44,895 nt of DNA from Escherichia phage VEc3, in the sequence record NC_047899.1; one strand, given 5' to 3'. Position numbers and translations under genes: made by a program. The notes beneath the pieces are model-generated. The model was given only the letters and a program-made list of their open reading frames with translations. It was not told the DNA's origin and made no database searches. Every line of letters starts with the position of its first letter. The stretch's first letter is position 1. Shown in pieces: positions 6,148-31,576 of the stretch.

Positions 6148-6163
6148 GTCTCACATGTGAGAC
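6148..6163. repeat. 16-bp perfect palindrome GTCTCACATGTGAGAC (copy 1)
   Basis: Exact palindrome immediately upstream of the phage promoter at 6166. Confidence 0.8.
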
Positions 6164-6165
6164 TT

Positions 6166-6188
6166 ATTTACCGGACACTATAGGATAG
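6166..6188 (+). promoter_or_regulatory. Phage RNAP promoter (ATTTACCGGACACTATAGGATAG)
   Basis: Matches the ATTTACyGGACACTATAG core; predicted +1 G at 6183. Confidence 0.6.
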
Positions 6189-6329
6189 CCGTCGGAGACG
6201 GGAAAGAAAGGGAAGATAAAGGATATAAAAGGAAGTAATAGGTATTAAAGGCTATATAGGTTATCTAGGAATACCTATTACCTTCTTCCTTCCTCTTATT
6301 ACTACTTAGAGGAAGGGCAGATCTAGGTT

Positions 6330-6345
6330 GTCTCACATGTGAGAC
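6330..6345. repeat. 16-bp perfect palindrome GTCTCACATGTGAGAC (copy 2)
   Basis: Exact palindrome immediately upstream of the promoter at 6351. Confidence 0.8.
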
Positions 6346-6350
6346 TTCGT

Positions 6351-6373
6351 ATTTACCGGACAGTATAGATAAG
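6351..6373 (+). promoter_or_regulatory. Phage RNAP promoter variant (ATTTACCGGACAGTATAGATAAG)
   Basis: Consensus-like with C to G at -5; precedes the HNH gene. Confidence 0.5.
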
Positions 6374-6395
6374 ACTAACTTACTTTGGAGGTTAC

Positions 6396-6812
6396 ATGCG
6401 TAAATCATTAGCTCAAAGAGTAGAGCAAGCAGGTTATACTATACAAGACGACGGTACTATCAAAGGTAAGCGAGGTAACATCTTGAAACCTTGGCTTCAA
6501 TCTTCAGGTTATCCAGTTGTAAATATAGTATTCAAGAAAGGTACAAAGACAACTACCCTTGTGCATCGCATAATTGCTAGTAAGTATTGTCCTTGCTCTG
6601 ACCCGTTGGCTAATGATGTAAACCACAAAGACGGAATCAAGACTAATAATGCAGCTTCTAATCTTGAATGGATTACACGTAGGCAGAACCGTAATCACTA
6701 TTTAGGTTTTGAGGACTATATGACACTTACGGCAGAGGATGCCCGTAAGAAGAATAATGAGCGCACTATTGCTCGACGTAAATTACTTAAACAGTTGAAT
6801 AATAAGGACTAA
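6396..6812 (+). CDS. HNH homing endonuclease
   Basis: 138 aa; VNHKDGIKTNNAASNLEWITRRQNRNH motif; AT-rich relative to neighbours. Confidence 0.85.
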   Translation: MRKSLAQRVEQAGYTIQDDGTIKGKRGNILKPWLQSSGYPVVNIVFKKGTKTTTLVHRIIASKYCPCSDPLANDVNHKDGIKTNNAASNLEWITRRQNRNHYLGFEDYMTLTAEDARKKNNERTIARRKLLKQLNNKD

Positions 6813-6814
6813 TT

Positions 6815-6946
6815 ATGCGTACTAACTTCGAAAAGATGACCCGTAAAGCTAACCGTTTTGACATGGAAGAAGGGCAGAAGAAAGGCAAGAAGCTGAATGT
6901 ACCTGTCCGTGACCGTGCATCTAAACGCGCTGCGTGGGAGTTCTAA
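6815..6946 (+). CDS. gp1.1-like small basic protein (43 aa)
   Basis: MRTNFEKMTRKANRFDMEEGQKKGKKLNVPVRDRASKRAAWEF resembles recalled T7 gp1.1 (MRNFEKMTKRSNRNARDFEATKGRKLNKTKRDRSHKRSWEGQ); AAGGA RBS. Confidence 0.5.
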   Translation: MRTNFEKMTRKANRFDMEEGQKKGKKLNVPVRDRASKRAAWEF

Positions 6947-6949
6947 GTT

Positions 6950-8938
6950 ATGGCTATTATTCAGAATGTACCGTGTCCTGCCTGTCAAAAGAATGGACAT
7001 GATATTACTGGCAACCATCTTATGATATTTGAGGATGGCGCTGGTTACTGTAACCGTGGTCACTTCCATGATAACGGTAAACCTTATTACCACAAGCCGG
7101 AAGGTGGCATCGAGATAACCGAGTTACCTATTACTGGCAATATCAAATATACACCTTCTCAATTCAAAGAAATGGAGAAGGAAGGGAAGATAAGCGACCC
7201 TAAGCTACGCGCCATCGCACTTGGTGGTATGCGTATGAAAGACCGTTGGGAGGTTATGAATGAGCAAGAAAGGGCAGACCAAGAAGCAGAGTGGAAACTT
7301 GATGTTGAATGGTTCCTCACGCTTAAGCGTAAGAACCTTGTATCCCGTCACATTCGAGGTGACATCGCAGCAATGTACGATGTGCGCGTTGGACACGATG
7401 AAGAGGGAAGAGTCAACCGTCACTATTATCCACGATATGAAAAGGGTGTGCTTGTTGGAGCAAAATGCCGGACGTTGCCGAAGGATTTTAAGTTCGGACA
7501 CCTAGGTAAACTCTTTGGTATGCAAGATCTTTTCGGTATGAACACTTTGTCTCACGTGTTAGACAAGGGGAGACGAAAGGATTGCTTGCTTATTGTAGGC
7601 GGTGAACTTGATGCACTAGCAGCGCAGCAGATGCTCCTTGATTCTGCCAAGGGTACTAAGTGGGAAGGCCAGCCATACCATGTATGGTCTGTCAACAAAG
7701 GTGAGTCTTGCCTTGAAGAGATAGTGCAGAACCGTGAGCATATCGCCCAATTCAAGAAGATTATTTGGGGCTTTGATGGGGATGGGGTTGGGCAGAAGCA
7801 GAACCAGCAAGCGGCTCGCCTGTTTCCCGGCAAATCCTATATCCTTGAATATCCTTCTGGTTGCAAAGATGCCAACAAGGCATTGATGGCTGGCAAGGCT
7901 AAAGAATTTGTGGATGCTTGGTTTAATGCAAAGTCATCTGATGAAGTCTTTGGTAGCCAGATTAAATCTATCGCATCTCAAAGAGATAAGCTCAAGGCTG
8001 CACGTCCAGAACAAGGGCTGTCATGGCCTTGGCCTAAGCTAAACAAGGTAACACTGGGTATCCGTAAGAACCAGCTTATCATTATAGGTGCAGGCTCTGG
8101 TGTAGGTAAGACTGAGTTCCTCCGTGAAGTAGTTAAGCATCTCATTGAAGAACACGGTGAATCTGTAGGCATCATTTCTACAGAAGACCCGATGGTCAAG
8201 GTGTCCCGTGCTTTTATCGGTAAGTGGATTGATAAGCGTATTGAGTTACCTCCAACCAATGACCCGAAAGAAGACGGATACCGTGAGGTGTTCGACTACA
8301 CCGAGGAAGAAGCTAACGCCGCCATTGATTATGTAGCTGATACAGGTAAGCTGTTTGTAGCTGACCTAGAAGGTGACTATTCGATGGAGAAGGTAGAGCA
8401 AACTTGCCTAGAGTTTGAGGCCATGGGTATTTCTAATATCATCATTGATAACTTAACGGGGATTAAATTAGATGAGCGTGCTTTTGGTGGGAAGGTTGGT
8501 GCACTTGATGAATGCGTCAAGCGGATTGGTACTATCAAAGACAGACACCCAGTTACTATATTCCTTGTATCACACCTTACACGTCCTCCGGCAAACCGTA
8601 CCCAACACGAAGAAGGTGGCGAGGTTATCCTTTCTGACTTCCGAGGCTCAGGAGCTATCGGATTCTGGGCATCTTACGCCTTGGGGATTGAGCGTAATAC
8701 AAGAGCTGAAACGCTTGACGAAAGGACTACCACGTATATCTCATGTGTCAAAGATCGCGACCAAGGTATCTTCACCGGAACCAAGATTATGCTTAAGGGT
8801 GATATTCAAACCGGACGTTTGAGAGAACCACAGGCTAGAACAAGGTCATTTGATACAGGTGAAGCAAGGCAACAAGAAGTGCCGGATTTACCGGACACTA
8901 TAGAAGAGACAACTTTTGACGATGAACAGGAGTTTTAA
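6950..8938 (+). CDS. DNA primase/helicase (gp4-like)
   Basis: 662 aa; N-terminal Cys4 zinc ribbon (CPACQ...CNRGHFH); Walker A GAGSGVGKT; acidic C-terminus ending ...DDEQEF. Confidence 0.9.
   Translation: MAIIQNVPCPACQKNGHDITGNHLMIFEDGAGYCNRGHFHDNGKPYYHKPEGGIEITELPITGNIKYTPSQFKEMEKEGKISDPKLRAIALGGMRMKDRWEVMNEQERADQEAEWKLDVEWFLTLKRKNLVSRHIRGDIAAMYDVRVGHDEEGRVNRHYYPRYEKGVLVGAKCRTLPKDFKFGHLGKLFGMQDLFGMNTLSHVLDKGRRKDCLLIVGGELDALAAQQMLLDSAKGTKWEGQPYHVWSVNKGESCLEEIVQNREHIAQFKKIIWGFDGDGVGQKQNQQAARLFPGKSYILEYPSGCKDANKALMAGKAKEFVDAWFNAKSSDEVFGSQIKSIASQRDKLKAARPEQGLSWPWPKLNKVTLGIRKNQLIIIGAGSGVGKTEFLREVVKHLIEEHGESVGIISTEDPMVKVSRAFIGKWIDKRIELPPTNDPKEDGYREVFDYTEEEANAAIDYVADTGKLFVADLEGDYSMEKVEQTCLEFEAMGISNIIIDNLTGIKLDERAFGGKVGALDECVKRIGTIKDRHPVTIFLVSHLTRPPANRTQHEEGGEVILSDFRGSGAIGFWASYALGIERNTRAETLDERTTTYISCVKDRDQGIFTGTKIMLKGDIQTGRLREPQARTRSFDTGEARQQEVPDLPDTIEETTFDDEQEF
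8886..8908 (+). promoter_or_regulatory. Phage RNAP promoter embedded in the primase/helicase 3' coding sequence
   Basis: ATTTACCGGACACTATAGAAGAG, full consensus; +1 G at 8903; encodes ...DLPDTIEE... Confidence 0.65.
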
Positions 8939-9099
8939 TGGAAATTATTAAACCAGTATTGAATATCGGTATTGAGATCCTATTCATGCTTGTGATCGCA
9001 GATTATGCTGCACGATATGGCTTCAAGAAAGCAGTGAAACTTATCGTTGCATCTGGTTTTATGATGTCAATGTTCTTTATTGTAACACGCCTTATCTAG
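8938..9099 (+). CDS. Small membrane protein (53 aa)
   Basis: ATG overlaps the primase stop (TAATG); two hydrophobic segments. Confidence 0.4.
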   Translation: MEIIKPVLNIGIEILFMLVIADYAARYGFKKAVKLIVASGFMMSMFFIVTRLI

Positions 9100-9116
9100 T
9101 GTATTTATCAGGGCTT

Positions 9117-9132
9117 GTCTCACATGTGAGAC
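9117..9132. repeat. 16-bp perfect palindrome GTCTCACATGTGAGAC (copy 3)
   Basis: Extended stem GCTTGTCTCACA/TGTGAGACAGGC, followed by TCTTATT. Confidence 0.8.
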
Positions 9133-9171
9133 AGGCTCTTATTAAGTACATTAAATAACTGGAGATTGATT

Positions 9172-9855
9172 ATGTATAAATTAGTATTGAATGTAGGTGA
9201 TTATGTTCGTAACATCAATGAAGCCTCACGTCGTTATCGTTGCCGTGGTGTAGTGGCTCGTGTAAGTGAGAACATGTATCATGTAGAATATGATGAGGGT
9301 ATTAAGGCTTCTTATCACAAGAAAACCGCACATAAATATCTTGAAAAGGTTGTAGAGGTAAGCAATCAATGTAAGTGCATACATGATGAGGTTTGCGATA
9401 AATGTGCTCGCCAGATGCTTAAGAATTTCCTAGCCCCTCTTTATTATGGTGCTGGTCCTCAAACACTAGCAGAGTACATGGCAGAAAAGAAAACCACACT
9501 CAAGAAAGAGCGTCGCAATGTAATCACTGGTAAGACTCAGAGTGAGATGATTAAGCAATGTGGCACTGCATTAGGTGTTACACAGTTCAATACTCGTGCA
9601 TTGGGTAAATCCACAGGACAAGCTATGGTGAAAATTGGTGAAGCTATGATGCACCCAAATGTGCCTGTGCGAATCTTGGATGTTGACCATGCAATCACAG
9701 AGCATGGCACACCACGGCGTGTAGCTAATGATCATTTCGCCGACACTATAGAAGGTATTATTCGTAAGCAAGGGTTGAAAGGTCTTCACATCTTGAATGA
9801 TGAAGAGTTACTGTACCTCCCTATTGTTACTGAAGAAACATACGTGAATATCTAA
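9172..9855 (+). CDS. Hypothetical protein (227 aa), Cys-containing
   Basis: Track ORF 9166-9855 (TTG); ATG 9172 preferred (GGAG 7 nt upstream); no family recognised. Confidence 0.6.
   Translation: MYKLVLNVGDYVRNINEASRRYRCRGVVARVSENMYHVEYDEGIKASYHKKTAHKYLEKVVEVSNQCKCIHDEVCDKCARQMLKNFLAPLYYGAGPQTLAEYMAEKKTTLKKERRNVITGKTQSEMIKQCGTALGVTQFNTRALGKSTGQAMVKIGEAMMHPNVPVRILDVDHAITEHGTPRRVANDHFADTIEGIIRKQGLKGLHILNDEELLYLPIVTEETYVNI
9734..9756 (+). promoter_or_regulatory. Candidate phage promoter inside CDS (ATTTCGCCGACACTATAGAAGGT)
   Basis: Conserved -12 to +5 core GACACTATAGAAG, upstream half diverged. Confidence 0.35.
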
Positions 9856-9865
9856 GGAGTTAATC

Positions 9866-10084
9866 ATGACTAAGGTATTAATTTATATGCGTGGACCTCA
9901 TAAATGCTATGCAGTTGTAGCACCAAATGGTGTTAAGCCTTATAGTACTTCAAAAGGATTGGCATTAATAGGTGCTAGTAGTAGTGCAAGTTTCCAAATG
10001 GAACTTTTTGGTCATTGGACTGAAAGGCAATTCCGTGAGGATTTTAAAGTCATTGGCAGCTTCATGGTGAAATATGCAGAATAA
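9866..10084 (+). CDS. Hypothetical protein (72 aa)
   Basis: Track ORF; AAGGAG RBS. Confidence 0.5.
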   Translation: MTKVLIYMRGPHKCYAVVAPNGVKPYSTSKGLALIGASSSASFQMELFGHWTERQFREDFKVIGSFMVKYAE

Positions 10085-10250
10085 ACATAGTCTTAGAATG
10101 TTCGATGGTCATGAAGACCTGCAAGCCAAGATTACTAACCAAGCCTTCCTGTTCGCACAGTTAACTATGGCTGAGGCCAAGAAGAATAGTCTCACTCGTG
10201 AACAGGTTATCAAGGAAAGTGAAGTGAAACGTAAGATTCGCAGTCGATAA
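10074..10250 (+). CDS. Small ORF (58 aa), hypothetical
   Basis: ATG 10074 overlapping upstream gene end; no clear RBS. Confidence 0.3.
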   Translation: MQNKHSLRMFDGHEDLQAKITNQAFLFAQLTMAEAKKNSLTREQVIKESEVKRKIRSR

Positions 10251-10260
10251 GTCAAGGGTT

Positions 10261-10276
10261 GTCTCACGTGTGAGAC
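10261..10276. repeat. Palindrome variant GTCTCACGTGTGAGAC (copy 4)
   Basis: One central change; extended stem GGTTGTCTCAC/GTGAGACAGCC then TTTTAT. Confidence 0.7.
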
Positions 10277-10307
10277 AGCCTTTTATCATGTTGATTGGAG
10301 GTGCATT

Positions 10308-10415
10308 ATGCCACGTGATTATGATTCTGATTGGGACTATTATGACTCAATGAATCCAAAACCCGAACGTTCAGATGATTACTACGAAACAGAGGTAATG
10401 TATGAAGACTATTGA
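10308..10415 (+). CDS. Small acidic ORF (35 aa), hypothetical
   Basis: GGAGG RBS 6 nt upstream; overlaps DNAP start by 14 nt. Confidence 0.35.
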   Translation: MPRDYDSDWDYYDSMNPKPERSDDYYETEVMYEDY

Positions 10416-12948
10416 TTGGAAGAAGGAGGCAGAAGGTCGTATCCTCGTGATGGATGCGGAAGCTAAAGGACTCCTTGACGCTATCCGATATGGACACCGT
10501 GAAGATGTGCATATCATTTGCTGCATGGACTTGCTTACTACCGAGGAGTTTCTCTTCTTCGACCCGTATGAGATGCGTGACCCTGAAGCAAGAGAACGCC
10601 TGAAGGAATGGGAAGGTCATCAAGACGGAACCTTGGTTGATGGTGTTAACTTCCTGAAGCATTGTGAAGCTATTGTGTCACAGAACTTCCTAGGGTATGA
10701 CGGACTTCTCTTTGAGAAAGCATTCCCTGATATTTGGAAAGGCTTTAACTATACCGAGAAGCGCGGTAAGGGCAGACTCCGTGCTGACCTGTGCCCGGTG
10801 CGAGTCATGGATACGCTGGTGATGAGTCGCCTGTTAAACCCCGATAGACGCCTTCCTCCGCAAGCATATGCCAAAGGTATGGGTAACGTCGCCCCTCACT
10901 CAATTGAGGCGCACGGCATCCGTATAGGTCGCTATAAACCGGAGAACGAGGACTGGTCTAAACTAACTGACCACATGGTTCACCGTGTACGTGAGGACGT
11001 GGCGATTGGTCGTGACCTATTCCTCTGGCTATTTAACGGAGAATGGACGGAGCACAAACGCCGTGGCGTGAATAAACGCACTGGCCTAGGTATTGAGACA
11101 GCCTTCCACATGGAGTCCATTGTGGCGCTGGAGATGAGCCGTCAGGCCGAGCGCGGGTTCCGTCTGGACATCGACAAGGCTTTGGCCCGATGCGAAGAAT
11201 TGGACGCTAAGATTGATGAGACAGTCGCAGCGTTCCGCCCTCACATGCCTATGCGTATCAAGTCTAAACCTTTTAAACCGGAAGAAAAGAATGAAGTATG
11301 CCAACGCGCAAATGAGTATGGAGCTAGCAACAATATACCTACTGTCCTTGACCCCTCACACTTTCTTCATGCCGAGAGACGAGGAGATCGCAAGACAGTA
11401 TGGAGTGTCACTACTAAGTCTGGTGATTGGTCGGCTAGTGTCAAGAAAGACTTTCCTCACCTTAGAGGAAACCGTAATGACACGCCAAGCATCAAGTGGA
11501 TTGGCGCTTACTCGCCTGTTACTTTCGAAGAGATCCCCTTGGGTAACAGGGGTACAGTTAAGCAAGTGCTCTATGAGTATGGATGGAAAGGTGTTGAATT
11601 TAACGATACCGAGCAAGCTCATCTCGATGAGCACGGAGTGTTACCAAAACCTTGGAGTGGTAAGATAAATGAAAAGTCCCTCACTTTATGGCAAGAAAGA
11701 GCCGCACGTGAAGGTAAAACAGTCCCTGATTGGTGCTTGGGTATCGCTGCATGGTACATATTCGTATCCCGTCGTGGTCAGATACTCAACCGTGGTGACG
11801 TTGAAGCCTTCAACGAGAAGGGAACGTGGCCCTCGCAGGCTGGTGTACGAAAGTGTCGCGGCCTTGTACCTGTAGCATTCAACAAGGAGCTAGGAATCAA
11901 TGCGCAGCAATACTACGAGAGGTACGGATGTTGGCCTACGTCTGACAAAGATGACGGAGAGTGGCGTGTTCCAGCTGTTGCTATTAGTATTGGCACTTCT
12001 ACGTTCCGTATGCGTCATCGTAACGTGGTTAATATTCCTGCCCGTGGCTTGTATCCTTTACGTGATTTATTCATAGCAGGGAAAGGCAAGCTAATCCTTG
12101 GTTGTGACGGTGCAGGTCTTGAACTGCGTGTCCTGTCTCACTTCATGAATGACCCTGAGTACCAAGAGATTGTACTGCACGGTGATATTCATACGCATAA
12201 CCAGATGAAGGCTGGTCTTCCTAAGCGTGATATGGCGAAGACGTTTATATACGCCTTCCTCTATGGTTCTGGTATAGCCAACCTTGCAGCAGTCTGCGGT
12301 GTTACTGAGGAAGAAATGAAGGAAGTTGTGGCAAGATTCGAGATTGAACTACCGTCTCTTGCACGTCTTCGTGAGAATGTTATCGCACAAGGTAACAAGT
12401 TTGGCTACCTGCAAGCACCTGATGGGCATTGGGGTCGCATCCGCATGTCTGGTGGTGAACTTAAAGAGCACACGATGCTTAACGTATTACTCCAGATGAC
12501 TGGCTCTTTGTGTATGAAATATGCATTAGTCAAGGCATTTGCAGTAATGCGCAAGGAAGGTGTAGCTTTGGATGCTATGGGAAATCCTTGTGGTGTGGCT
12601 AACGTGCATGATGAAATCCAGATGGAAGTTCCTGAAGAGGAGGTCTTGTATCTTAACTACGACCTACCTTTCACCTTAGATGGGTTCGAAACAGAGAAGG
12701 CTGCTGTGAAAGCAGTTTTCGATGCAGAGGAGAAACGTGTTCATGTGGATTCTGAAGGACGTATGTGGTCTGCTGCAAACCTCGTTAGCGTTGATGCTGA
12801 TGCTGGTGTATTGCATTGCCAGCGCCGTTATCACCGTGCAGGTCATATCATTGCCGAAGCCATGACTTGGGCAGGGCAGTATCTGAAGATGCGTTGCCCG
12901 ATGGCAGGAGAATATAAGATTGGCGCAAGCTGGAAGGAAACACACTGA
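10402..12948 (+). CDS. DNA polymerase (family A, T7 gp5-like)
   Basis: 848 aa; exonuclease and polymerase blocks (GxDGAGLELRVLSHF, HGDIHTHNQ, KTFIYAFLYGSG, VHDEIQ). Confidence 0.93.
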   Translation: MKTIDWKKEAEGRILVMDAEAKGLLDAIRYGHREDVHIICCMDLLTTEEFLFFDPYEMRDPEARERLKEWEGHQDGTLVDGVNFLKHCEAIVSQNFLGYDGLLFEKAFPDIWKGFNYTEKRGKGRLRADLCPVRVMDTLVMSRLLNPDRRLPPQAYAKGMGNVAPHSIEAHGIRIGRYKPENEDWSKLTDHMVHRVREDVAIGRDLFLWLFNGEWTEHKRRGVNKRTGLGIETAFHMESIVALEMSRQAERGFRLDIDKALARCEELDAKIDETVAAFRPHMPMRIKSKPFKPEEKNEVCQRANEYGASNNIPTVLDPSHFLHAERRGDRKTVWSVTTKSGDWSASVKKDFPHLRGNRNDTPSIKWIGAYSPVTFEEIPLGNRGTVKQVLYEYGWKGVEFNDTEQAHLDEHGVLPKPWSGKINEKSLTLWQERAAREGKTVPDWCLGIAAWYIFVSRRGQILNRGDVEAFNEKGTWPSQAGVRKCRGLVPVAFNKELGINAQQYYERYGCWPTSDKDDGEWRVPAVAISIGTSTFRMRHRNVVNIPARGLYPLRDLFIAGKGKLILGCDGAGLELRVLSHFMNDPEYQEIVLHGDIHTHNQMKAGLPKRDMAKTFIYAFLYGSGIANLAAVCGVTEEEMKEVVARFEIELPSLARLRENVIAQGNKFGYLQAPDGHWGRIRMSGGELKEHTMLNVLLQMTGSLCMKYALVKAFAVMRKEGVALDAMGNPCGVANVHDEIQMEVPEEEVLYLNYDLPFTLDGFETEKAAVKAVFDAEEKRVHVDSEGRMWSAANLVSVDADAGVLHCQRRYHRAGHIIAEAMTWAGQYLKMRCPMAGEYKIGASWKETH

Positions 12949-13064
12949 TGGATAGGCTTGACATTATTTGCCTATTCTTCACTCTCTTTCTTACACTCCT
13001 TATGCTTGCTTGTTATGGGAGTATGAGACTAGATATACCTGATGAAGAAGAGGGTTACGACTAA
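12948..13064 (+). CDS. Small membrane protein (38 aa)
   Basis: ATG overlaps DNAP stop (TGATG); hydrophobic core LFFTLFLTLLMLACY. Confidence 0.35.
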   Translation: MDRLDIICLFFTLFLTLLMLACYGSMRLDIPDEEEGYD

Positions 13065-13162
13065 TGCAAACTGCTTTTATTATTCTTGGTATCATATTAT
13101 TTATGGTAGTACTCTGGGCCTTCTCTGGCATTGACCCGGATTGTGATGGTAACTACGACTGA
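13064..13162 (+). CDS. Small membrane protein (32 aa)
   Basis: TAATG overlap with upstream ORF; hydrophobic ILGIILFMVVLWAF. Confidence 0.35.
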   Translation: MQTAFIILGIILFMVVLWAFSGIDPDCDGNYD

Positions 13163-13230
13163 GTTATACTCAAGGTCACTTACGAGTGGCCTTTATGGAT
13201 AACTTATCCCTACTTATTTTGTCTAACATG

Positions 13231-13253
13231 ATTTACTGGACACTATAGAAGGA
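13231..13253 (+). promoter_or_regulatory. Phage RNAP promoter (ATTTACTGGACACTATAGAAGGA)
   Basis: Full consensus; +1 G at 13248. Confidence 0.7.
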
Positions 13254-13857: not shown

Positions 13858-14664
13858 ATGGCACGTGGTGATTTTGATTTTGGTGCTCAGGTTACTAAGG
13901 CTGAAGGTAAAGTATTTAAGAACCCTGAAGTTGGTGATCATGAAGCAGTAATCTCTGGCATCATTCATGTTGGTTCCTTCCAAGATATTTTTAAGAAAGG
14001 TAATACCACTGAGGTTAAGAAGCCAGCAAACTTTGTTCTTGTTAAGATTATCCTGATGGGTGACGACGACAAGAATGAAGATGATTCTCGCATGGAACAG
14101 TGGATGGCTGTGTCTCTGAAGTCTGGTGACAAGGCAACCTTGACTAAGTTCCTGAATGCAGTTGACCCGAAAGAATTACTTGGTGGGTTCGATGATTTTA
14201 TCGGGGAATGCCTGACTGCAACTATGGTTGGCTCTGGTGACAAGAACGATGATGGGTCATTCAAGTATGTTAACTGGAAGGGCTTTGGTGGTATGCCGGA
14301 CAAGCTGAAGAAACTTGTCATTGCTCAGGTTGAAGAGGAAGGTCTGTCTATGACAGGTCATATCACCTTCGACAAGCTGACCAAAGAAATCCTTGATGAC
14401 ATCCCAGCTAACTTGGTGCGTCAATACTTCCTTAATGAAACACCTCGTGGTAAGAACCTGTCTGTTGCTGGTTCTCACGTAGAAGCAATCATTAAAGCTG
14501 CTCGTGAAGAAGACCCAGAGTGGAAGAAAGCCAAGAAGAAAGATGACGAGGATGCTACTCCAGCTAATCGTAAATCTCTGGATACTGGTGAGTCTGTTCC
14601 ACAGGAAGTACCTGAAGCAGAAGATACTCCTGCACCGGAGATGGATGAGGACGCGGAATATTAA
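13858..14664 (+). CDS. Candidate ssDNA-binding protein (gp2.5-like)
   Basis: 268 aa; long acidic C-terminal tail ending ...MDEDAEY with a terminal aromatic, as in T7 gp2.5; strong RBS; assignment by architecture only. Confidence 0.45.
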   Translation: MARGDFDFGAQVTKAEGKVFKNPEVGDHEAVISGIIHVGSFQDIFKKGNTTEVKKPANFVLVKIILMGDDDKNEDDSRMEQWMAVSLKSGDKATLTKFLNAVDPKELLGGFDDFIGECLTATMVGSGDKNDDGSFKYVNWKGFGGMPDKLKKLVIAQVEEEGLSMTGHITFDKLTKEILDDIPANLVRQYFLNETPRGKNLSVAGSHVEAIIKAAREEDPEWKKAKKKDDEDATPANRKSLDTGESVPQEVPEAEDTPAPEMDEDAEY

Positions 14665-14893: not shown

Positions 14894-14909
14894 GTCTCAC
14901 ATGTGAGAC
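14894..14909. repeat. 16-bp perfect palindrome GTCTCACATGTGAGAC (copy 5)
   Basis: Two nt after the upstream stop and 15 nt before the promoter at 14925. Confidence 0.8.
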
Positions 14910-14924
14910 AAATCGGTGTCCGGT

Positions 14925-14947
14925 ATTTACTGGACACTATAGAAGAG
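14925..14947 (+). promoter_or_regulatory. Phage RNAP promoter (ATTTACTGGACACTATAGAAGAG)
   Basis: Full consensus; +1 G at 14942. Confidence 0.7.
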
Positions 14948-23397: not shown

Positions 23398-23402
23398 TCA
23401 GT

Positions 23403-24679: not shown

Positions 24680-24687
24680 TACCTATG

Positions 24688-24723
24688 CCCTATCTACCTT
24701 GCGTAGGTAGGGTTCTTTTTGTT
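24688..24723 (+). terminator. Terminator after the capsid gene
   Basis: CCCTATCTACC-TTGCG-TAGGTAGGG then TTCTTTTTGTT. Confidence 0.75.
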
Positions 24724-24733
24724 AGGAGGATTC

Positions 24734-25471
24734 ATGCCTGTAATTAAACAAACCAGTAAAGTAGGACACATGATGGAAGATGTGGCCTTCCAGATTATTG
24801 ATAGCAAGCTTGAAGCGGTCAACTTGTGTATGCGAGCTATTGGTCGTGAGGGTGTGGATTCTCTCGACTCAGGCGATCTTGATGCAGAAGATGCAAGTAA
24901 GATGATTGATATTGTATCCCAGCGCTTCCAGTATAACAAAGGCGGTGGCTGGTGGTTCAATCGTGAACCTAACTGGCAGCTTGCACCAGACACGAACGGT
25001 GAGATTAACTTGCCTAATAACTGCCTAGCTGTATTGCAGTGCTACGCATTGGGTGAGAAGAAAGTGCCTATGACTATGCGTGCAGGTAAGCTTTACTCCA
25101 CATGGAGTCACACCTTTGATATGCGCAAGCATGTTAATGCTAATGGCATGATTCGTCTTACCTTACTCACCTTACTACCCTACGAGCATCTACCTACAAG
25201 TGTAATGCAGGCTATTGCCTATCAAGCTGCTGTAGAGTTTATTGTGTCTAAGGATGCAGATCAGACTAAGCTAGCCACTGCGCAGCAGATAGCCACTCAG
25301 CTTCTTATGGATGTACAATCTGAGCAAATGTCACAGAAGCGATTAAACATGCTGGTACATAATCCCACTCAGCGTCAATTTGGTATCATGGCTGGTGGCT
25401 CTCAGAATGTACCTGCTTACTCTCATTCACCTTATGATAGTTGGGCACTCCGTCCTTGGGAGGATCGTTAA
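24734..25471 (+). CDS. Tail tubular protein A (gp11-like)
   Basis: 245 aa from ATG 24734 (AGGAGGA RBS); track ORF 24719 slightly over-extended. Confidence 0.65.
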   Translation: MPVIKQTSKVGHMMEDVAFQIIDSKLEAVNLCMRAIGREGVDSLDSGDLDAEDASKMIDIVSQRFQYNKGGGWWFNREPNWQLAPDTNGEINLPNNCLAVLQCYALGEKKVPMTMRAGKLYSTWSHTFDMRKHVNANGMIRLTLLTLLPYEHLPTSVMQAIAYQAAVEFIVSKDADQTKLATAQQIATQLLMDVQSEQMSQKRLNMLVHNPTQRQFGIMAGGSQNVPAYSHSPYDSWALRPWEDR

Positions 25472-27873
25472 TGGAAGTACAAGGTTCATTAGGCAGACAA
25501 ATCCAAGGGATTAGCCAGCAACCGCCAACGGTGCGCTTGGATGGTCAGTGCACAGCTATGGTTAATATGATGCCTGATGTAGTGAATGGTACTCAATCAC
25601 GCATGGGTACAACTCATATTGCAAAGATACTTGATGCGGGGACTGATGACATGGCTACTCATCATTATCGCAGAGGTGATGGTGATGAAGAGTATTTCTT
25701 CACGTTGAAGAAAGGACAAGTTCCTGAGATATTTGATAAGTATGGGCGCAAATGTAATGTGACTTCACAAGATGCACCTATGGCTTACTTGGCTGAGGTG
25801 ATAAACCCAAGAGAAGATGTGCAATTTATGACGATAGCTGATGTTACTTTCATGCTTAACCGCAGGAAGGTAGTTAAAGCTAGTAACAGAAAGTCACCCA
25901 AAGTTGGAAACAAAGCCATTGTGTTTTGTGCATATGGTCAATACGGTACATCTTATTCCATTGTAATTAATGGGGCCAACGCTGCTAGTTTTAAAACACC
26001 GGATGGTGGAAGTGCAGACCATGTTGAACAAATTCGAACTGAACGTATCACTTCTGAATTGTACTCTAAGTTACAGCAATGGAGCGGTGTGAGTGACTAT
26101 GAAATACAAAGAGATGGTACTAGTATATTTATCGAGAGACGGGATGGTGCTAGCTTTACAATAACAACCACCGATGGTGCAAAAGGTAAGGATTTAGTGG
26201 CTATCAAGAATAAAGTTAGCTCTACTGACCTACTCCCTTCTCGTGCGCCTGCGGGTTATAAAGTGCAAGTGTGGCCTACTGGCAGCAAACCTGAGTCTCG
26301 TTACTGGCTGCAAGCTGAGCCTAAAGAGGGAAACCTTGTATCTTGGAAAGAAACAATAGCTGCCGATGTATTACTTGGGTTTGATAAAGGCACAATGCCT
26401 TATATCATTGAACGTACAGGTATCGTAGACGGCATAGCTCAATTCAAGATAAGACAAGGCGATTGGGAAGATCGTAAAGTAGGAGATGACCTGACTAACC
26501 CTATGCCTTCTTTTATTGATGAAGAAGTACCTCAGACAATAGGTGGGATGTTCATGGTGCAGAACCGCCTATGCTTTACAGCAGGTGAAGCTGTTATTGC
26601 TTCTCGTACATCATACTTCTTCGATTTCTTTCGTTATACGGTTATCTCTGCATTGGCAACTGACCCATTTGATATTTTCTCAGATGCTAGTGAAGTCTAC
26701 CAGCTAAAACATGCAGTGACCTTAGATGGCGCTACCGTGTTGTTCTCTGATAAGTCACAATTCATACTGCCAGGAGATAAGCCTTTAGAGAAGTCAAATG
26801 CATTGCTTAAGCCTGTTACAACATTTGAAGTGAACAATAAAGTGAAGCCAGTAGTAACTGGTGAATCGGTAATGTTTGCCACTAATGATGGTTCTTACTC
26901 TGGTGTACGAGAGTTCTATACAGACTCTTATAGTGACACTAAGAAGGCACAAGCAATCACAAGTCATGTGAATAAACTCATCGAAGGTAACATTACCAAC
27001 ATGGCAGCAAGCACCAATGTCAACAGGTTACTTGTCACTACCGATAAGTATCGTAACATAATCTACTGCTACGATTGGTTATGGCAAGGAACAGACCGTG
27101 TACAATCAGCATGGCATGTATGGAAGTGGCCTATAGGTACAAAGGTGCGAGGTATGTTTTATTCTGGCGAATTACTTTACCTGCTCCTTGAGAGAGGCAA
27201 TGGTGTCTATCTGGAGAAGATGGATATGGGTGATGCATTAACCTATGGTTTAAATGATCGTATCCGAATGGATAGACAGGCAGAGTTAATCTTCCAGCAT
27301 TTCAAAGCAGAAGATGAGTGGGTATCTGAACCGCTACCTTGGGTTCCTACTAACCCAGAACTTTTAGATTGCATCTTAATCGAGGGTTGGGATTCATATA
27401 TTGGTGGTTCTTTCCTATTCAAATACAACCCCGGTGATAACACCTTGTCTACAACCTTTGATATGCATGATGATAGCCACGTAAAAGCGAAGGTTATTGT
27501 TGGTCAGATTTACCCTCAAGAGTTTGAACCAACACCTGTAGTTATCAGAGATAGGCAAGACCGTGTATCCTATATTGATGTACCTGTTGTGGGATTAGTT
27601 CACCTTAATCTTGATATGTATCCTGATTTCTCCGTGGAGGTTAAGAATGTGAAGAGTGGTAAAGTACGCAGGGTGCTGGCGTCAAACCGTATAGGTGGTG
27701 CTCTCAACAATACAGTAGGTTATGTTGAACCAAGAGAGGGTGTCTTCAGATTCCCACTGAGGGCTAAGAGTACGGATGCTGTTTATCGTATTATTGTAGA
27801 ATCACCTCACACATTCCAGCTCCGCGATATTGAGTGGGAAGGGAGCTACAATCCAACCAAAAGGAGGGTCTAA
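25471..27873 (+). CDS. Tail tubular protein B (gp12-like)
   Basis: 800 aa from ATG 25471 (TAATG coupling, GGAGGA RBS); size and position match gp12. Confidence 0.75.
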   Translation: MEVQGSLGRQIQGISQQPPTVRLDGQCTAMVNMMPDVVNGTQSRMGTTHIAKILDAGTDDMATHHYRRGDGDEEYFFTLKKGQVPEIFDKYGRKCNVTSQDAPMAYLAEVINPREDVQFMTIADVTFMLNRRKVVKASNRKSPKVGNKAIVFCAYGQYGTSYSIVINGANAASFKTPDGGSADHVEQIRTERITSELYSKLQQWSGVSDYEIQRDGTSIFIERRDGASFTITTTDGAKGKDLVAIKNKVSSTDLLPSRAPAGYKVQVWPTGSKPESRYWLQAEPKEGNLVSWKETIAADVLLGFDKGTMPYIIERTGIVDGIAQFKIRQGDWEDRKVGDDLTNPMPSFIDEEVPQTIGGMFMVQNRLCFTAGEAVIASRTSYFFDFFRYTVISALATDPFDIFSDASEVYQLKHAVTLDGATVLFSDKSQFILPGDKPLEKSNALLKPVTTFEVNNKVKPVVTGESVMFATNDGSYSGVREFYTDSYSDTKKAQAITSHVNKLIEGNITNMAASTNVNRLLVTTDKYRNIIYCYDWLWQGTDRVQSAWHVWKWPIGTKVRGMFYSGELLYLLLERGNGVYLEKMDMGDALTYGLNDRIRMDRQAELIFQHFKAEDEWVSEPLPWVPTNPELLDCILIEGWDSYIGGSFLFKYNPGDNTLSTTFDMHDDSHVKAKVIVGQIYPQEFEPTPVVIRDRQDRVSYIDVPVVGLVHLNLDMYPDFSVEVKNVKSGKVRRVLASNRIGGALNNTVGYVEPREGVFRFPLRAKSTDAVYRIIVESPHTFQLRDIEWEGSYNPTKRRV

Positions 27874-28595
27874 TGGCTATAGGTTCTGCCGTTATGGCTG
27901 GTATGTCTTCTATTGGTAGTATGTTTACAGGCAGCGGTGCAGCAGCCGCTGCTGGAGATGCTGCCGCAGGTGGCGGAGGCTTGCTAGGTTCTCTAGGTGG
28001 CTTCCTAAGCGGCTCTACTGCTGGCTTCTCTAATGCTGGGCTTCTTGGTGCTGGCCTTCAAGGTTTAGGCTTGATTGGTGATCTCTTTGGTGGAAGTGAT
28101 GAAGCCAAGGCAATGAAGAAAGCACAAGAAGAACAGTGGCGGCAGCAACTTATTGCTACACAAGAAGCATACAAAACAGTAGCAGATGCAGAGCGTTCTG
28201 CTGCTAAACAATATCATGCAGATGCAATAAGCAATCAGGCTTCACTACTACAGCAGCGAGCACAGGTTGCATTACTAGCAGGTGCTACTGGTACTGGTGG
28301 TAACTCTGTATCTTCTATGCTGAATGACTTAGCAGCAGAGGGCGGGAGGAACCAGAGTACAATTATTGATAACTATGAGAATCAGAAGATTAACTTCACC
28401 AATCAGCTTAAGTCTATCCAGCGAGGTGGACAGATGCAGATGCGTGAGTTTAAGAAGCCTTCTGCCGTGAGCACCTTGGTGCAAGGTATACCGAGTCTGG
28501 CATCTGCCTATGTAACAGGTAGTAAGTCCGGCATGGCTTTAGGTAAAGCTTTAACTGATTCTCGTACATATTCATCTGGAACAAGAGGTATTTAA
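27873..28595 (+). CDS. Internal virion protein, Gly/Ala-rich (gp13/14-like)
   Basis: 240 aa from ATG 27873 (AGGAGGG RBS); N-terminal glycine-rich hydrophobic region. Confidence 0.5.
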   Translation: MAIGSAVMAGMSSIGSMFTGSGAAAAAGDAAAGGGGLLGSLGGFLSGSTAGFSNAGLLGAGLQGLGLIGDLFGGSDEAKAMKKAQEEQWRQQLIATQEAYKTVADAERSAAKQYHADAISNQASLLQQRAQVALLAGATGTGGNSVSSMLNDLAAEGGRNQSTIIDNYENQKINFTNQLKSIQRGGQMQMREFKKPSAVSTLVQGIPSLASAYVTGSKSGMALGKALTDSRTYSSGTRGI

Positions 28596-31543
28596 TGGCA
28601 ATTGAGCGACAAGCAGTACAAGGCCTGCCACAAGTGCAGGCCACTTCTCCTAATGTCATGACCTTTGCACCTCAGCGAGTTGGAGGTGTGGAGGCTGGCG
28701 TAGCTTCTACCTCCGGTAGTCGATTTATCGAAGACCTTATTCGAGCAGCCAGTAGTGTAGCTGATGTAACCACTGGTATCCTTAATCAAAAGATTGAGGA
28801 AGATAAGGTTGTTCAAATGGAACGGGCATATAACGGATTAATGCCTTCTGAGGATGCAACTCGTGGTGGCGCTCGTGCTAACATGCTTGTCAAAGCTCAA
28901 CTGCTAGCTAATGATGAAGCAGCACGAATGAAAGACATGGCTACTCGTTTCCAAGGAACGGATGACGAGTGGACACAACTTATGGTTGACTCTCGTAATG
29001 AGATGCAGAATAAGCTGTTCCAGCAATACCCTGAGTTGCAAGGTGACAAAGATATTATGCGTATGGTCACTAATGTCTTCCAAGAACAGCAGCCTCAGAT
29101 TTGGGCTACACGAACCCAGCATAAACTTGACCGTGAACAAGCAGACCGTGAGGATACCTTTGACGGGCGAGTGGCTTCTACTTGGGATTCTAGTATTGAC
29201 CCTGAAGCCTCTGGCTATGCTTTACAGGAACGAATCCGCGAAGGTCTTACTCAAGGATTACTACCTGAACAGATGCACAAGAAGTTAGTCCAGCGAGCAA
29301 TTTCACTTGCACAAGGCGGTGATGTTAGCATGGCTGAAGCCCTGAAGTATGTGAAGGATGATAAGGGTGTTTCTGTTTATGCTAAGAATCCACAGCTTAT
29401 CACAGCCATCACTAGTGGTAATGCAGTTTGGGCTAGGAATAATGTAGCTGATGTAACTCGTATGTCTTTCGAAGTTAAAGAATCCTACCTTGCAGGTGAT
29501 TTAACTGATGAAGAATTGTTGGAACGAGCACAGCACATTAATAATCTGACAGGTAACTCTGTCTTCTCTAATCCAGAGCTAGAGGCACTGATGCGCCAAC
29601 GGGCTAAGCAGAATGCAGAGCTAGGTGCAATGCAGGATATGCGACGTGAGCTTTACTCCGACCGCCTGACTGGCTTCCAAGGTAAGACTGATAAAGAGAA
29701 GAAGGCTTACATTGATGTTATCAAACAGGATAGCCAACTTTATGCAGACCAGCAAATCAAACAACGTGGCTTGGACCCTTACAGTCAAGAGGCTGAAGCT
29801 ATTCGTGGTGCAGTGGAAGTGCAGCGCCTGCAATTCATGAACTCCAAAGGCTTAGTGGATGATACCTTTGAGTCTCGTATCAAAGCCATGGAATCTATGC
29901 TATCGCCTGAGCACTTTGCCAAGGGCGAACCACAGGAGTTGATGACTATTCGCCAGTTGTGGGAACAGTTGCCAGAAGAGAGCCGAGGTGTCTTTGGTGA
30001 CACGGTGAATGGCTATATGGATAACTACAACACTGCACTACAAATGGGAGAGACACCTCTGCAGGCTGCAAGGTTTGCGCGTGAAGCACAGCAGAAATTC
30101 TCTCGTACTGAGAAGGAAACCAAGAAGTTCAACTCAGCTATTGGAGATGCACTGGATGAGGTATCTGGTGCTGGCTGGTTTGATGGTAAAACCGAAGTGT
30201 CAGACTTAGGTAAAGCTATTGCGGAAGAAGAGTTACGAGCTAAGGCCAATATGTTGTGGTCTAGTGGTATGCGTAACATGGATTCTATCAAGAAGGCTTT
30301 AATTACTTGGGGCAATAAACGCTACACTCAAACAGAGGATGCAAAGACTTCCGGTGGCTATTTCATTAAAGGTGATTACACTTCTGCATCTGATATGCTT
30401 ATGTCAGTTGGGAAAGGCGTAAACCCTACCGATGTACCTCTGGCGCTTGGTAGGTATGTAGAAACACAGATGCCAGAATTGAAGAAGGAGCTTCAAGAGT
30501 GGGAAACTAAAGATGATATATACATTGATTACAATGAACAGAAAGGAACTTTTGTGATTCGTGCTGGTGCAGCAGGTCGCCCTCTTTCTGGAGTAATCCC
30601 TGTAACCTCTTTAGATACTACTTCACTACTAGATTCTGCCTATCAGAAGAAAGTAGAGGAACGAGATAAAGGCGAGTATGTCCACCCGTATCGTACAGAT
30701 ATTGGTGCACAAGAGCCTATGCCAGCTAAACCAACTGCCAAAGATATTGGTAAATTTGGACTAGCTAACTTCCTCATGTCTTCTGCTTTTGCTTCTGGTG
30801 AGAATCTGCCTTCTAACTTCGAGATTAACTATCGAGGTAATATGCAACAATTCTATGACAAGCTAGCTATGGATGAGAATAAAGATAAAGTTGGCTTTAA
30901 TAAGGCAACTGGAACCTTTACTCCATATAAAGACGCTCGCGGTGAGTCTATCGGTTACGGTCATTTCTTAACGGAAGAAGAGAAGCGAAACGGGTATATT
31001 AAGATTGGTGATGAACTAGTTCCCTATCGAGGGTCTATGTCTCAGCTTACAGAGAGCAAGGCTCGCGCTCTTATGGAGCAAGATGCCAAGAAGCATGTGC
31101 CTCCTACTCGTGACTGGAAGATTCCGTTTGACCAGATGCATCCTGCACAGCAACGTGGCTTGATGGATTTAACCTACAATTTAGGTAAAGGTGGAATCCA
31201 GAACTCACCGCGTGCTCTTGCTGCATTCAAAGCTGGTAAGCTTACGGAAGGCTTTATCGAAATGCTGGGCACTGCATCAAGTGAAGGTAAGCGTATCCCT
31301 GGTCTACTGAAGCGACGCGCTGAGGCATACAATATGGCATCTGCTGGTGGTGTGCCTAAGATTACCGAAGTGGAGACTCGTGAAGATGGCTCCATGTGGG
31401 TTAGGTTTGGTGGACCTATGCCAGCAGGTTCTGTCTCGGCATGGACTCATAAACGTATTGGCGCGGATGGTTGGTATCAGGTTTATGAGGCTGCACCTAC
31501 CAAGTTGGCTAAAGGTTCTAAGGTAGGTAAATTTAAGTTGTAG
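28595..31543 (+). CDS. Internal virion protein with C-terminal lysozyme-like domain
   Basis: 982 aa; C-terminal YKDARGESIGYGH and LMDLTYNLG blocks resemble T4-type lysozyme (YKDTEGYYTIGIGH). Confidence 0.7.
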   Translation: MAIERQAVQGLPQVQATSPNVMTFAPQRVGGVEAGVASTSGSRFIEDLIRAASSVADVTTGILNQKIEEDKVVQMERAYNGLMPSEDATRGGARANMLVKAQLLANDEAARMKDMATRFQGTDDEWTQLMVDSRNEMQNKLFQQYPELQGDKDIMRMVTNVFQEQQPQIWATRTQHKLDREQADREDTFDGRVASTWDSSIDPEASGYALQERIREGLTQGLLPEQMHKKLVQRAISLAQGGDVSMAEALKYVKDDKGVSVYAKNPQLITAITSGNAVWARNNVADVTRMSFEVKESYLAGDLTDEELLERAQHINNLTGNSVFSNPELEALMRQRAKQNAELGAMQDMRRELYSDRLTGFQGKTDKEKKAYIDVIKQDSQLYADQQIKQRGLDPYSQEAEAIRGAVEVQRLQFMNSKGLVDDTFESRIKAMESMLSPEHFAKGEPQELMTIRQLWEQLPEESRGVFGDTVNGYMDNYNTALQMGETPLQAARFAREAQQKFSRTEKETKKFNSAIGDALDEVSGAGWFDGKTEVSDLGKAIAEEELRAKANMLWSSGMRNMDSIKKALITWGNKRYTQTEDAKTSGGYFIKGDYTSASDMLMSVGKGVNPTDVPLALGRYVETQMPELKKELQEWETKDDIYIDYNEQKGTFVIRAGAAGRPLSGVIPVTSLDTTSLLDSAYQKKVEERDKGEYVHPYRTDIGAQEPMPAKPTAKDIGKFGLANFLMSSAFASGENLPSNFEINYRGNMQQFYDKLAMDENKDKVGFNKATGTFTPYKDARGESIGYGHFLTEEEKRNGYIKIGDELVPYRGSMSQLTESKARALMEQDAKKHVPPTRDWKIPFDQMHPAQQRGLMDLTYNLGKGGIQNSPRALAAFKAGKLTEGFIEMLGTASSEGKRIPGLLKRRAEAYNMASAGGVPKITEVETREDGSMWVRFGGPMPAGSVSAWTHKRIGADGWYQVYEAAPTKLAKGSKVGKFKL

Positions 31544-31560
31544 TATCTAACTCAAGGCTT

Positions 31561-31576
31561 GTCTCACATGTGAGAC
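31561..31576. repeat. 16-bp perfect palindrome GTCTCACATGTGAGAC (copy 6)
   Basis: Between the two large internal virion protein genes; extended stem then TCTTTAT. Confidence 0.8.

Follow-up and report, generated by a model that had tools for sequence, protein, structure and literature searches.

The closest described systems to the one considered here are the KorB-OB regulon of the IncP plasmid RK2 and ParB-parS, in which a dimeric protein with a ParB-type helix-turn-helix (HTH) domain recognizes a short palindrome present in many dispersed copies on a single replicon, some beside promoters, some far from them and some inside genes. The OB core is TTTAGCGGCTAAA (PMC11790492) and parS sites are inverted repeats of around 16 bp (PMC10786196). 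At the RNA level, the RNase III signals of phage T7 (R0.3, R0.5, R1.1, R4.7, R18.5 and others) provide a second comparison, being two-tier hairpins with an asymmetric internal loop. Here we describe a recurrent 16-bp palindrome, GTCTCACATGTGAGAC, in the genome of Escherichia phage VEc3 (NC_047899.1; the whole stretch of 44,895 bp is hereafter the window). Three of its copies lie within hairpins of the T7 type, and comparative analysis suggests that the palindrome is probably a double-stranded DNA recognition site for an early protein of the phage itself, the KorB/ParB-like gp6.

The window is a complete phage genome with a direct terminal repeat of 304 bp and all of its genes on the + strand. 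It is 93-98% identical to Vectrevirus phages (K1E, K1-5, EEc4 and others), a K1E/K1-5-like group placed in the SP6 supergroup (Autographiviridae, Molineuxvirinae). Eleven phage promoters of the type ATTTAC(C/T)GGACACTATAG were mapped with a 23-nt consensus. The first sigma70-like promoter is at 716-744, another is at 1348-1376, and an early terminator hairpin lies at 6082-6105.

Eight palindromes in three classes

A previous sequence-only reading had listed five exact copies of the 16-mer (starting at 6148, 6330, 9117, 14894 and 31561) and two with a single mismatch (633 and 10261), all of which are confirmed (Table 1), and had judged such repetition to be beyond chance. This too is borne out: with up to two mismatches allowed there are eight matches, against 0.01 expected from 100 shuffles. 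The eighth, at 7549 and with two mismatches, had been overlooked. It sits in the primase/helicase open reading frame (ORF), 6950-8938, so that the description of the copies as all intergenic is right for the seven then listed and wrong for the set as a whole.

The 16-mer consists of a 7-bp half-site, GTCTCAC, and its inverted repeat on either side of a purine-pyrimidine dinucleotide. The genome contains 16 GTCTCAC heptamers, 14 of them within palindromes; the two isolated instances compare with 5.25 expected, showing half-sites outside palindromes to be no commoner than chance. Seven of the eight sites fall in the left third of the genome, the part that enters the cell first and carries the genes for early functions and DNA metabolism.

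While the sites had previously been lumped together, three classes can be distinguished. In class A (9117, 10261 and 31561) the palindrome is nested in the apex of a larger hairpin, class B consists of the bare copies at 6148, 6330 and 14894, and class C comprises the left-end copy at 633 and the coding copy at 7549. No Rfam family matched the elements. In the searchable literature we found no description of the 16-mer, of these palindromes, of gp6 or of DUF3102 function, although a passing mention in the 2004 SP6/K1-5 genome papers is possible.

Table 1. Palindromes, hairpins, promoters and the candidate reader gene in the window (E+ and E-, folding energies for the + and - strands).
Feature	Coordinates	Strand	Remarks
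Left-end copy GTCTCACATGTTAGAC	633..648	.	Half-sites GTCTCAC and GTCTAAC; after the terminal-repeat/CTTAGT array, ahead of the first sigma70-like promoter (716-744)
Gene 6, 310 aa, proposed palindrome reader	2451..3383	+	GTG start at 2451; in K1E annotated from the ATG corresponding to 2460
Exact palindrome, bare	6148..6163	.	43 bp after terminator hairpin 6082-6105; 2 bp before promoter 6166-6188
Phage promoter ATTTACCGGACACTATAGGATAG	6166..6188	+	0 mismatches to the consensus used
Exact palindrome, bare	6330..6345	.	5 bp before promoter 6351-6373
Phage promoters, companions of 6166-6188	6351-6373 and 14925-14947		Consensus match
Coding copy GTCTCACGTGTTAGAC	7549..7564	.	In the primase/helicase gene, read S-H-V-L-D
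T7-type RNase III-like two-tier hairpin	9097..9153	+	Upstream of gene 10; exact palindrome 9117-9132 at apex; E+ -31.7 vs E- -20.0; 79.1 bits
T7-type RNase III-like hairpin	10241..10297	+	Upstream of gene 12/DNA polymerase; variant GTCTCACGTGTGAGAC (10261-10276) at apex; E+ -29.0 vs E- -14.1
Exact palindrome, bare	14894..14909	.	Starts 2 nt after the gp17 stop codon; ends 15 bp before promoter 14925-14947
T7-type RNase III-like hairpin	31538..31600	+	Between gp35 and gp36; exact palindrome 31561-31576 at apex

Concerted change of the palindrome among relatives

The palindrome is conserved in every relative tested. Searches with GTC..AC-N2/3-GT..GAC, a pattern of ten fixed bases with a chance expectation of 0.1 per genome, find 6-9 copies each in K1E, K1-5, SP6, Proteus phage Premi, Klebsiella phage K13PH07C1L and Erwinia phage phiEa1H. 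The orthologous positions are the left end, after the RNA polymerase (RNAP) gene, inside the primase gene, after it, before the DNA polymerase gene, before gene 18, and between gp35 and gp36.

Within a genome, positions 4-5 and 12-13 are of a single type; from one genome to another they vary, being TC/GA, TA/TG or CA/TG. The GTCTCAC/GTGAGAC type is found in Vectrevirus, in Erwinia, Vibrio and Pseudomonas phages and in several environmental phages; GTCCAAC/GTTGGAC is the type of Klebsiella, Proteus, Lelliottia and Salmonella phages, and GTCTAAC/GTTGGAC is common in the SP6 lineage. Where the spacer is of 2 bp it is always purine-pyrimidine, and a 3-bp spacer is seen in Proteus, Vibrio and Pseudomonas phages. 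The fact that all copies in a genome change together points to a trans-acting, sequence-specific reader, since genome-wide concerted change is not expected of independent hairpins.

The frequency of mismatches between the two arms varies with the class of site, from 0/55 in class A through 4/60 at the sites between the RNAP and primase genes to 23/40 at the left end. These figures agree with two layers of constraint, one on the half-site everywhere and a second, on RNA pairing, where the site is in an RNase III hairpin.

Palindromes of the form GTCTCAC(CA/TG/TA)GTGAGAC also occur, in operator-like clusters of two or three around AT-rich promoter-like stretches, in other phage contigs that are not T7-like (L012 8700-8830, L063 4930-5045, L013 7520-7585, L096 7455-7515, L052 1385 and 3708; also L086 and L097). 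No gene resembling that for gp6 was found in the fetched flanks of the L012, L013, L063, L086, L096/97 and L052 clusters, and we treat these as a separate matter.

Copies embedded in coding sequence

The most telling evidence for a sequence-specific reader comes from the copies within genes. In TC-type genomes the primase copy is TCT CAC GTG TTA GAC (S-H-V-L-D), while it is TCT AAC GTG TTG GAC in SP6 and TCC AAC GTG TTG GAC in the Klebsiella phage (S-N-V-L-D; TA/CA types). The choice of His (CAC) or Asn (AAC) codon thus tracks the half-site type of each genome. The right half is GTTAGAC in the TC-type genomes because GTGAGAC would introduce an in-frame TGA. In phiEa1H the identical 16-mer is found in the RNAP and ligase genes, in the same frame and each time read SHVLD. 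In the K1E primase copy the derived His produces a C x U mismatch in the would-be hairpin and restores the consensus half-site. Since this breaks pairing in favour of the half-site, selection at this place acts on the half-site sequence and not on pairing.

The early protein gp6 as candidate reader

The earlier suggestion that the palindromes might be operators for a dimeric DNA-binding protein is the one favoured by the present evidence, and a candidate can now be named. Gene 6 is an early gene directly upstream of the RNAP gene. Its product matches no Pfam entry and falls in a PHROG of unknown function. Homologues are present in 212 phage records, all belonging to this group of Autographiviridae of ~44-47 kb. 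All 34 IMG/VR loci retrieved by gp6 homology, among them Vibrio, Pseudomonas and Marinomonas-type phages with only 33-36% identity in gp6, contain the motif at least once, and in several copies except at the two loci with the shortest flanks. T7, a Yersinia T7-like phage and a Klebsiella Przondovirus (Studiervirinae) lack both gp6 and the motif. Contig L160/L109, which is unrelated to the SP6-like phages, shares with the window only the gp6 N-domain, of Lys type (see below). In L160 (10142-10157 and 4046-4061; the same as L109 2645) GTCTCACGCGTGAGAC occurs inside the gene for the N-domain homologue, where it is read V-S-R-V-R, and another copy lies between divergent ORFs. A motif within the gp6-like gene is reminiscent of the parS sites within parB genes.

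An AlphaFold2 model of gp6, made with a 14-sequence alignment, has a helical N-domain (13-125; pLDDT ~90), a disordered region (129-208), a long helix (208-248) and a confident C-terminal domain. A Foldseek search of the PDB with the model gave no significant match, KorB and ParB being among the weak ones, but the best structural matches of the N-domain are the DNA-binding domains of KorB and ParB, and the N-domain is predicted to be a ParB-type HTH domain. Sequence similarity of gp6 to ParB or KorB is undetectable, and a profile search of PDB sequences with gp6 returned coiled-coil noise only. Weak sequence matches link gp6 or its relatives to DUF3102 (best E 0.064, for two of seven orthologues, below the Pfam threshold); with these agree the nearest non-orthologues among the predicted viral structures of BFVD, which are DUF3102 proteins (E 3e-3 to 0.2). 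DUF3102 is a Pfam family of phage and plasmid proteins without known function, so that the comparison, with gp6 a putative member at most, adds no mechanism for gp6.

The resemblance to KorB and ParB extends to the presence of multiple palindromes on the same replicon, with a type that co-varies with gp6 as expected of putative cognate sites. The half-site of parS, GTTTCAC, is a single base away from GTCTCAC. There are also clear differences. Unlike ParB, gp6 lacks the N-terminal CTPase domain: its HTH domain begins at about residue 13, only ~12 residues precede it in the model, there is no Pfam ParBc match, and there is no evidence for a sliding clamp. Unlike either protein it has a J-like C-terminal end, one that lacks the HPD motif of a J-domain, and its replicon is a T7-like phage of strictly lytic habit. 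The gene annotations of K1E and related phages showed no sign of a ParA/IncC or KorA partner, although no search aimed at one was made.

The co-variation centres on residue 69, which lies in the helix KAQCY[K]LMSVARVF after the helix-turn. In this helix K64, Q66 and L70 are invariant and A65, Y68 and M71 nearly so. In the 41 loci compared, all genomes of the GTCTCAC type have Lys at residue 69, and all those of the GTCCAAC or GTCTAAC type have Asn, with the exception of SP6 itself, which has His. Trees of the RNAP and of gp6 (the latter with residue 69 masked) both place Vectrevirus, with Lys, inside the Asn clade, and the outgroups again have Lys; this implies at least two switches in which the residue and all sites changed together. 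Of the 239 columns of gp6, two alone, K69 and E105, separate the classes while being invariant in the paraphyletic TC class. Separating columns in the other proteins are heterogeneous, amounting to 2/864 in RNAP, 2/638 in primase (one of them the codon of the embedded site) and 6/538 in DNA polymerase. In protein-DNA contacts Asn commonly reads A and Lys commonly reads G. A contact of Asn with A5 of GTCCAAC, and of Lys with the G complementing C5 of GTCTCAC, would therefore be chemically sensible.

The correlation with residue 69 would be coincidental or indirect if the palindromes were read by a different phage protein, or by one injected from the virion. Several conserved proteins of unknown function do exist (gp10, gp11, gp17, gp18, gp25 and gp28), and the column scan covered only gp6, RNAP, primase and DNA polymerase, coverage for gp10 and gp11 being too low. 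Nevertheless, no homologue of gp10 could be detected in phiEa1H, although that phage has the motif, and only gp6 combines a DNA-binding-type fold, a class-separating invariant residue in the helix after the helix-turn, and co-occurrence with the motif outside the SP6-like phages (L160). We consider another phage reader improbable. Pfam and PHROGs searches with the conserved unknown proteins revealed nothing informative, and no phage protein was found that is closer between K1E and phiEa1H than between K1E and SP6.

The RNAP was rejected as reader, since the specificity regions of the promoters are different in each genus without following the motif type. The primase was also considered, because GTC starts the motif on both strands, as in the T7 primase site; the SP6 primase recognises GCA, however, and no consensus emerges from the copied flanks, so this idea was dropped.

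A host transcription factor or nucleoid protein, exploited by the phage, could in principle bind the palindrome. Some 22 bp (edge to edge) downstream of the left-end copy comes a CRP-type site (671-686), followed by the first sigma70-like promoter, and at such a place host regulators are active before any phage protein has been made. Against this, E. coli, Erwinia, Vibrio and Pseudomonas phages share GTCTCAC, whereas phages of the closely related Salmonella, Klebsiella and Proteus have GTCCAAC. Motif type thus follows phage lineage and gp6 residue 69, not host relatedness, and recognition by a host factor seems extremely unlikely.

Sites within RNase III-like hairpins

The extension of the palindromic stem by complementary flanks, reported by the sequence-only reading, is confirmed for the class A sites, each of which has an upper stem of 13 bp. 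Beneath it are parts of the structure not remarked on at that time, namely a 2x3 internal loop and a lower stem of 9-11 bp. Folding energies are from -25 to -32 kcal/mol (z = -3.8 to -6.0), and RNA of the + strand is more stable than that of the - strand by 6-15 kcal/mol as a result of G.U pairs. We aligned 25 class A sites, orthologous and paralogous, from nine phage lineages. In this alignment 97.1% of cells are paired, compared with 29-43% in slid controls, compensatory double changes are present in 13/24 pairs and G.U is conserved at three positions, values reached by none of 500 shuffles.

The covariance model derived from the alignment (R1) matches the T7 genome only at 843-910, 1418-1488 and 36807-36876 (E 1e-4 to 1e-3), just upstream of genes 0.3, 0.5 and 18.5. 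We take these to be R0.3, R0.5 and R18.5, on the basis of the site coordinates of Dunn and Studier 1983, not of an annotation. The flanks AACTCAAGG...GTCTTTATGAT at 31561 and AAGTCAAGG...CCTTTTATCAT at 10261 match those of T7 RNase III sites, such as ACTCAAGGTC...GGCCTTTATGATT at R0.5 and R1.1. In RNA form the flanks shared by the T7 sites and the three window sites are (A)CUCAAGG...CCUUUAUGA / CUCAAGG...CUUUAUGA, and both sets are located just upstream of a ribosome-binding site. T7, too, superimposes signals, nesting promoters inside the RNase III hairpins R6.5 and R13. The apex of the T7 hairpins is variable, however, whereas that of all three window hairpins is the conserved 16-bp palindrome which also occurs alone.

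The sites at 9117, 10261 and 31561 are T7-type RNase III signals, with cleavage predicted from their sequence and fold, and in this respect are an extension of known T7 biology. The earlier proposal that the palindromes are RNase III sites consequently holds for three of the eight copies, in which the signal is the surrounding two-tier hairpin and not the palindrome; the other five are without that architecture. R1 also detects palindrome-free hairpins of the class A type in Vibrio phage Vp670 and in phiEa1H. In Vp670 (L155 12000-12090) such a hairpin and a separate palindrome are found side by side. The existence of hairpins without palindrome and of palindromes without hairpin shows the two to be separable modules.

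In K1-5 (L002) a single palindrome of the GTCCAAC/GTTGGAC type characteristic of Salmonella and Klebsiella phages is present, at 9570-9585, among copies of the GTCTCAC type. It adjoins a gene 12 start region resembling that of SP6 and looks like a mosaic import, which implies that a non-cognate site is tolerated at the apex of an RNase III hairpin.

It might be argued that the palindrome works at the RNA level only, as a hairpin on rightward transcripts: in class A it would be the apical stem of the RNase III signal, the bare copies would be 3'-end or processing hairpins of read-through transcripts, and uniformity would be maintained by an RNA-level reader or by pairing between sites. That the class A copies belong to conserved RNA structures is certain, given the covariation, the strand preference and the freedom from mismatches described above. 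The T.G (U.G) combination in 6/9 SP6 copies, the tolerance of both 2- and 3-nt centres and the location of T7 RNase III sites, which are likewise next to or around promoters, fit as well. The concerted change of mid-stem pairs throughout a genome is, however, unexpected on this basis, the K1E primase copy has moved away from pairing, and the bare and left-end copies, to which we now turn, are poor hairpins. An explanation in terms of RNA only is, in our view, unlikely.

Bare, promoter-proximal and left-end sites

The copies at 6148, 6330, 14894 and 633 have none of the two-tier structure of ~20 bp or more seen in class A. Each has a 6-bp stem only, too short for RNase III as generally understood, with z-scores of -0.4 to +0.7 and no strand asymmetry (at 6148, where there is no lower stem, E+ is -14.1 vs E- -17.6), and R1 is matched only at its apical positions 31-46. 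C.A mismatches are found in some promoter-proximal copies of Klebsiella phages. The left-end copies, ahead of the first early promoter, still have recognisable half-sites for all their mismatches. A purely RNA role leaves the bare, left-end and coding copies unexplained, as it does the concerted evolution.

The proximity of three copies to phage promoters, pointed out previously, is correct. Measured from class II-type promoters, the class B sites occupy -20 to -48, so that they adjoin the promoter without overlapping it. Left-end orthologues in phiEa1H (763) and Premi (42730) directly abut a phage promoter.

Pausing or termination of the phage RNAP was another early suggestion, which can be widened to the host RNAP and to insulation of the downstream promoters. 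A simple scan indeed flags 6148 and 6330 as terminator-like, with a hairpin and a T-rich tail, the annotation of Premi labels the orthologous class A hairpins as terminators, and in relatives the element often adjoins true intrinsic terminators. But the T-rich tails are simply the A/T-rich start, ATTTAC, of a closely following promoter. The third bare copy, at 14894, has none, and the orthologous copies in SP6 (6093), Premi (5911) and phiEa1H (7036, 14700) have no U-run, so that the G+C-rich hairpin with a conserved U-run typical of an intrinsic terminator is absent. Furthermore, a structural terminator needs no conserved sequence, concerted evolution or coding copies. We therefore abandon the phage RNAP pause or termination proposal and regard any such function as very unlikely.

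Two other possibilities were discarded. Long-range pairing of 6148 with 6330 to form an RNase III duplex is ruled out since their flanks do not pair, and a likeness of the palindrome to promoter cores is confined to one copy (6148, bottom strand) and was taken as coincidence.

Several further sequence features were noted. Between the two promoter-proximal palindromes (6148 and 6330) is a long imperfect palindrome, 6225-6316, purine-rich/pyrimidine-rich, with arms 6229-6246 / 6270-6287 that are 89% complementary and more arms out to 6316. Its placement, after the RNAP gene and between two phage promoters, corresponds to that of the primary replication origin in T7. An inverted repeat, GGTGTCCGGTATTTACTGGACACT (window 14915-14938), takes in the upstream half of the gene-18 promoter and has counterparts at ~14275-14300 in SP6 and ~13895-13918 in Premi. 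Its left arm co-varies with the promoter specificity region (GTGTCTC/GGGGACAC in SP6, GTGGTCT/AGACCAC in Premi), and in RNA it forms a 10-bp hairpin contributing ~-13 of the region's -23 kcal/mol. Immediately before the promoter at 13231 (window 13214-13253) stands a half element, GTCTAACATG, which continues into it (GTCTAACATGATTTACTGGAC) and may be a decayed or split palindrome. Finally, the CRP-type site at 671-686, TGTGACATGTATCACA, is perfect and the genome's only TGTGA-N6-TCACA. It lies 22 bp past the left-end palindrome, with the -35 of the first early promoter ~30 bp further downstream. K1E and SP6 have it too, and the Klebsiella phage has a similar version.

A model for gp6 and its sites

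Taking comparative genomics and predicted structure together, gp6 is the probable reader of the palindrome. Its parts would be a KorB/ParB-type HTH domain (~13-125), a disordered linker of ~80 residues, the long helix 208-248, probably for dimerisation, and the J-domain-like C-terminal domain. Each N-domain would read one half-site, with the invariant K64 and Q66 and the nearly invariant Y68 facing the invariant bases GTC..AC, and residue 69 facing the variable positions 4-5 (Lys with ..TC.., Asn/His with ..CA../..TA..). The flexible tether would account for spacers of both 2 and 3 bp.

The sites may be seen as occupying the scarce non-coding room of packed genomes, at the boundaries of transcription units. 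On this picture one marks the left end, two surround the first phage promoters after the early terminator, one precedes the gene-18 promoter, three are accommodated in the apical stem of RNase III hairpins, where the palindrome would merely lengthen the stem, and one has been forced into the primase frame. As to the consequence of binding, our best guess is that gp6, like KorB, would tune or insulate early and class II transcription globally, or that it would organise the third of the genome that enters first; it might also form a roadblock behind the early terminator (6082-6105).

A number of points weigh against gp6 as reader. It and the motif are both traits of a clade, so that their co-occurrence is by itself phylogenetically confounded, and the link between them is drawn from comparative genomics. 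The SP6 relatives L139 and L140 have Asn at residue 69 and yet many GTCTAAC half-sites, meaning that the His state is not uniquely tied to the third motif type. In Proteus phages the spacer is of 3 bp at most sites and of 2 bp at one, which is odd for a dimeric operator and requires the assumption of a flexible tether. Lastly, heterotypic sites outside the left end favour the U.G-wobble orientation over the C.A mismatch by 18 vs 5, indicating that RNA pairing also matters at many sites.

More tentatively, and with somewhat less than even confidence, we envisage a hitherto unrecognised operator-type system common to the SP6 supergroup, in Vectrevirus, Zindervirus and their relatives on Klebsiella, Proteus, Erwinia, Vibrio and Pseudomonas. 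An early DUF3102/KorB-like protein would bind 6-9 dispersed palindromes through a one-residue code (Lys69 for GTCTCAC, Asn69 for GTCCAAC) and organise or regulate the incoming genome as a whole. It could insulate or tune the first phage promoters, block read-through by host RNAP or exert a VirB-like counter-silencing. Nesting of sites in RNase III hairpins and coding sequence would then be deliberate.

Other features of the genome

A dense array of (C)CTTAGT repeats is present at window 340-500, directly inside the left terminal repeat. Similar arrays are found in K1E, K1-5 and Premi, and the position is comparable to that of the short repeat arrays beside the T7 terminal repeats.

The early region contains three boxA-like sequences, (T/C/A)GCTCTTTAACAA, which we take to be the boxA consensus of rrn and lambda antitermination. 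That at 794-806 follows the sigma70-like promoter 716-744 and a small hairpin (777-793), that at 1409-1421 follows the promoter 1348-1376, and the third is at 1617-1629. Copies of TCTTTAACAA recur in SP6 (three) and in K13PH07C1L (five). This suggests rrn-type antitermination of early transcripts made by the host polymerase.

Two ORFs of the window, 6396-6812 (138 aa) and 36367-36810 (147 aa), are not in K1E, K1-5 or SP6 and are 37-40% identical to stretches of phiEa1H, a genome with three annotated HNH endonuclease genes. The first comes directly after the second promoter-proximal palindrome (6330), in the region between the RNAP and primase genes where close relatives of the window have an annotated HNH homing endonuclease; the second is at the junction of the small and large terminase genes. 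Both are probably homing endonuclease insertions.

Implications

To our knowledge, the textbook programme of T7-like phages consists of polymerases, promoters, terminators and RNase III sites, without an operator-repressor layer. The gp6-palindrome system, its specificity residue and its superposition on RNA processing signals all appear to be new. If the interpretation offered here is right, an operator-type layer not previously known in T7-like phages would extend across a whole subfamily, to which the phage that yielded SP6 RNA polymerase belongs, as do several K1 and Klebsiella phages with therapeutic use. The DUF3102-like protein family would thereby gain its first function, and the Lys/Asn alternative at one position, set against two base pairs, would be a natural and tractable specificity switch in a ParB/KorB-type fold. 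The superposition of a DNA site on an RNA processing signal matters both for annotation, where the hairpins are now labelled terminators, and for phage engineering.

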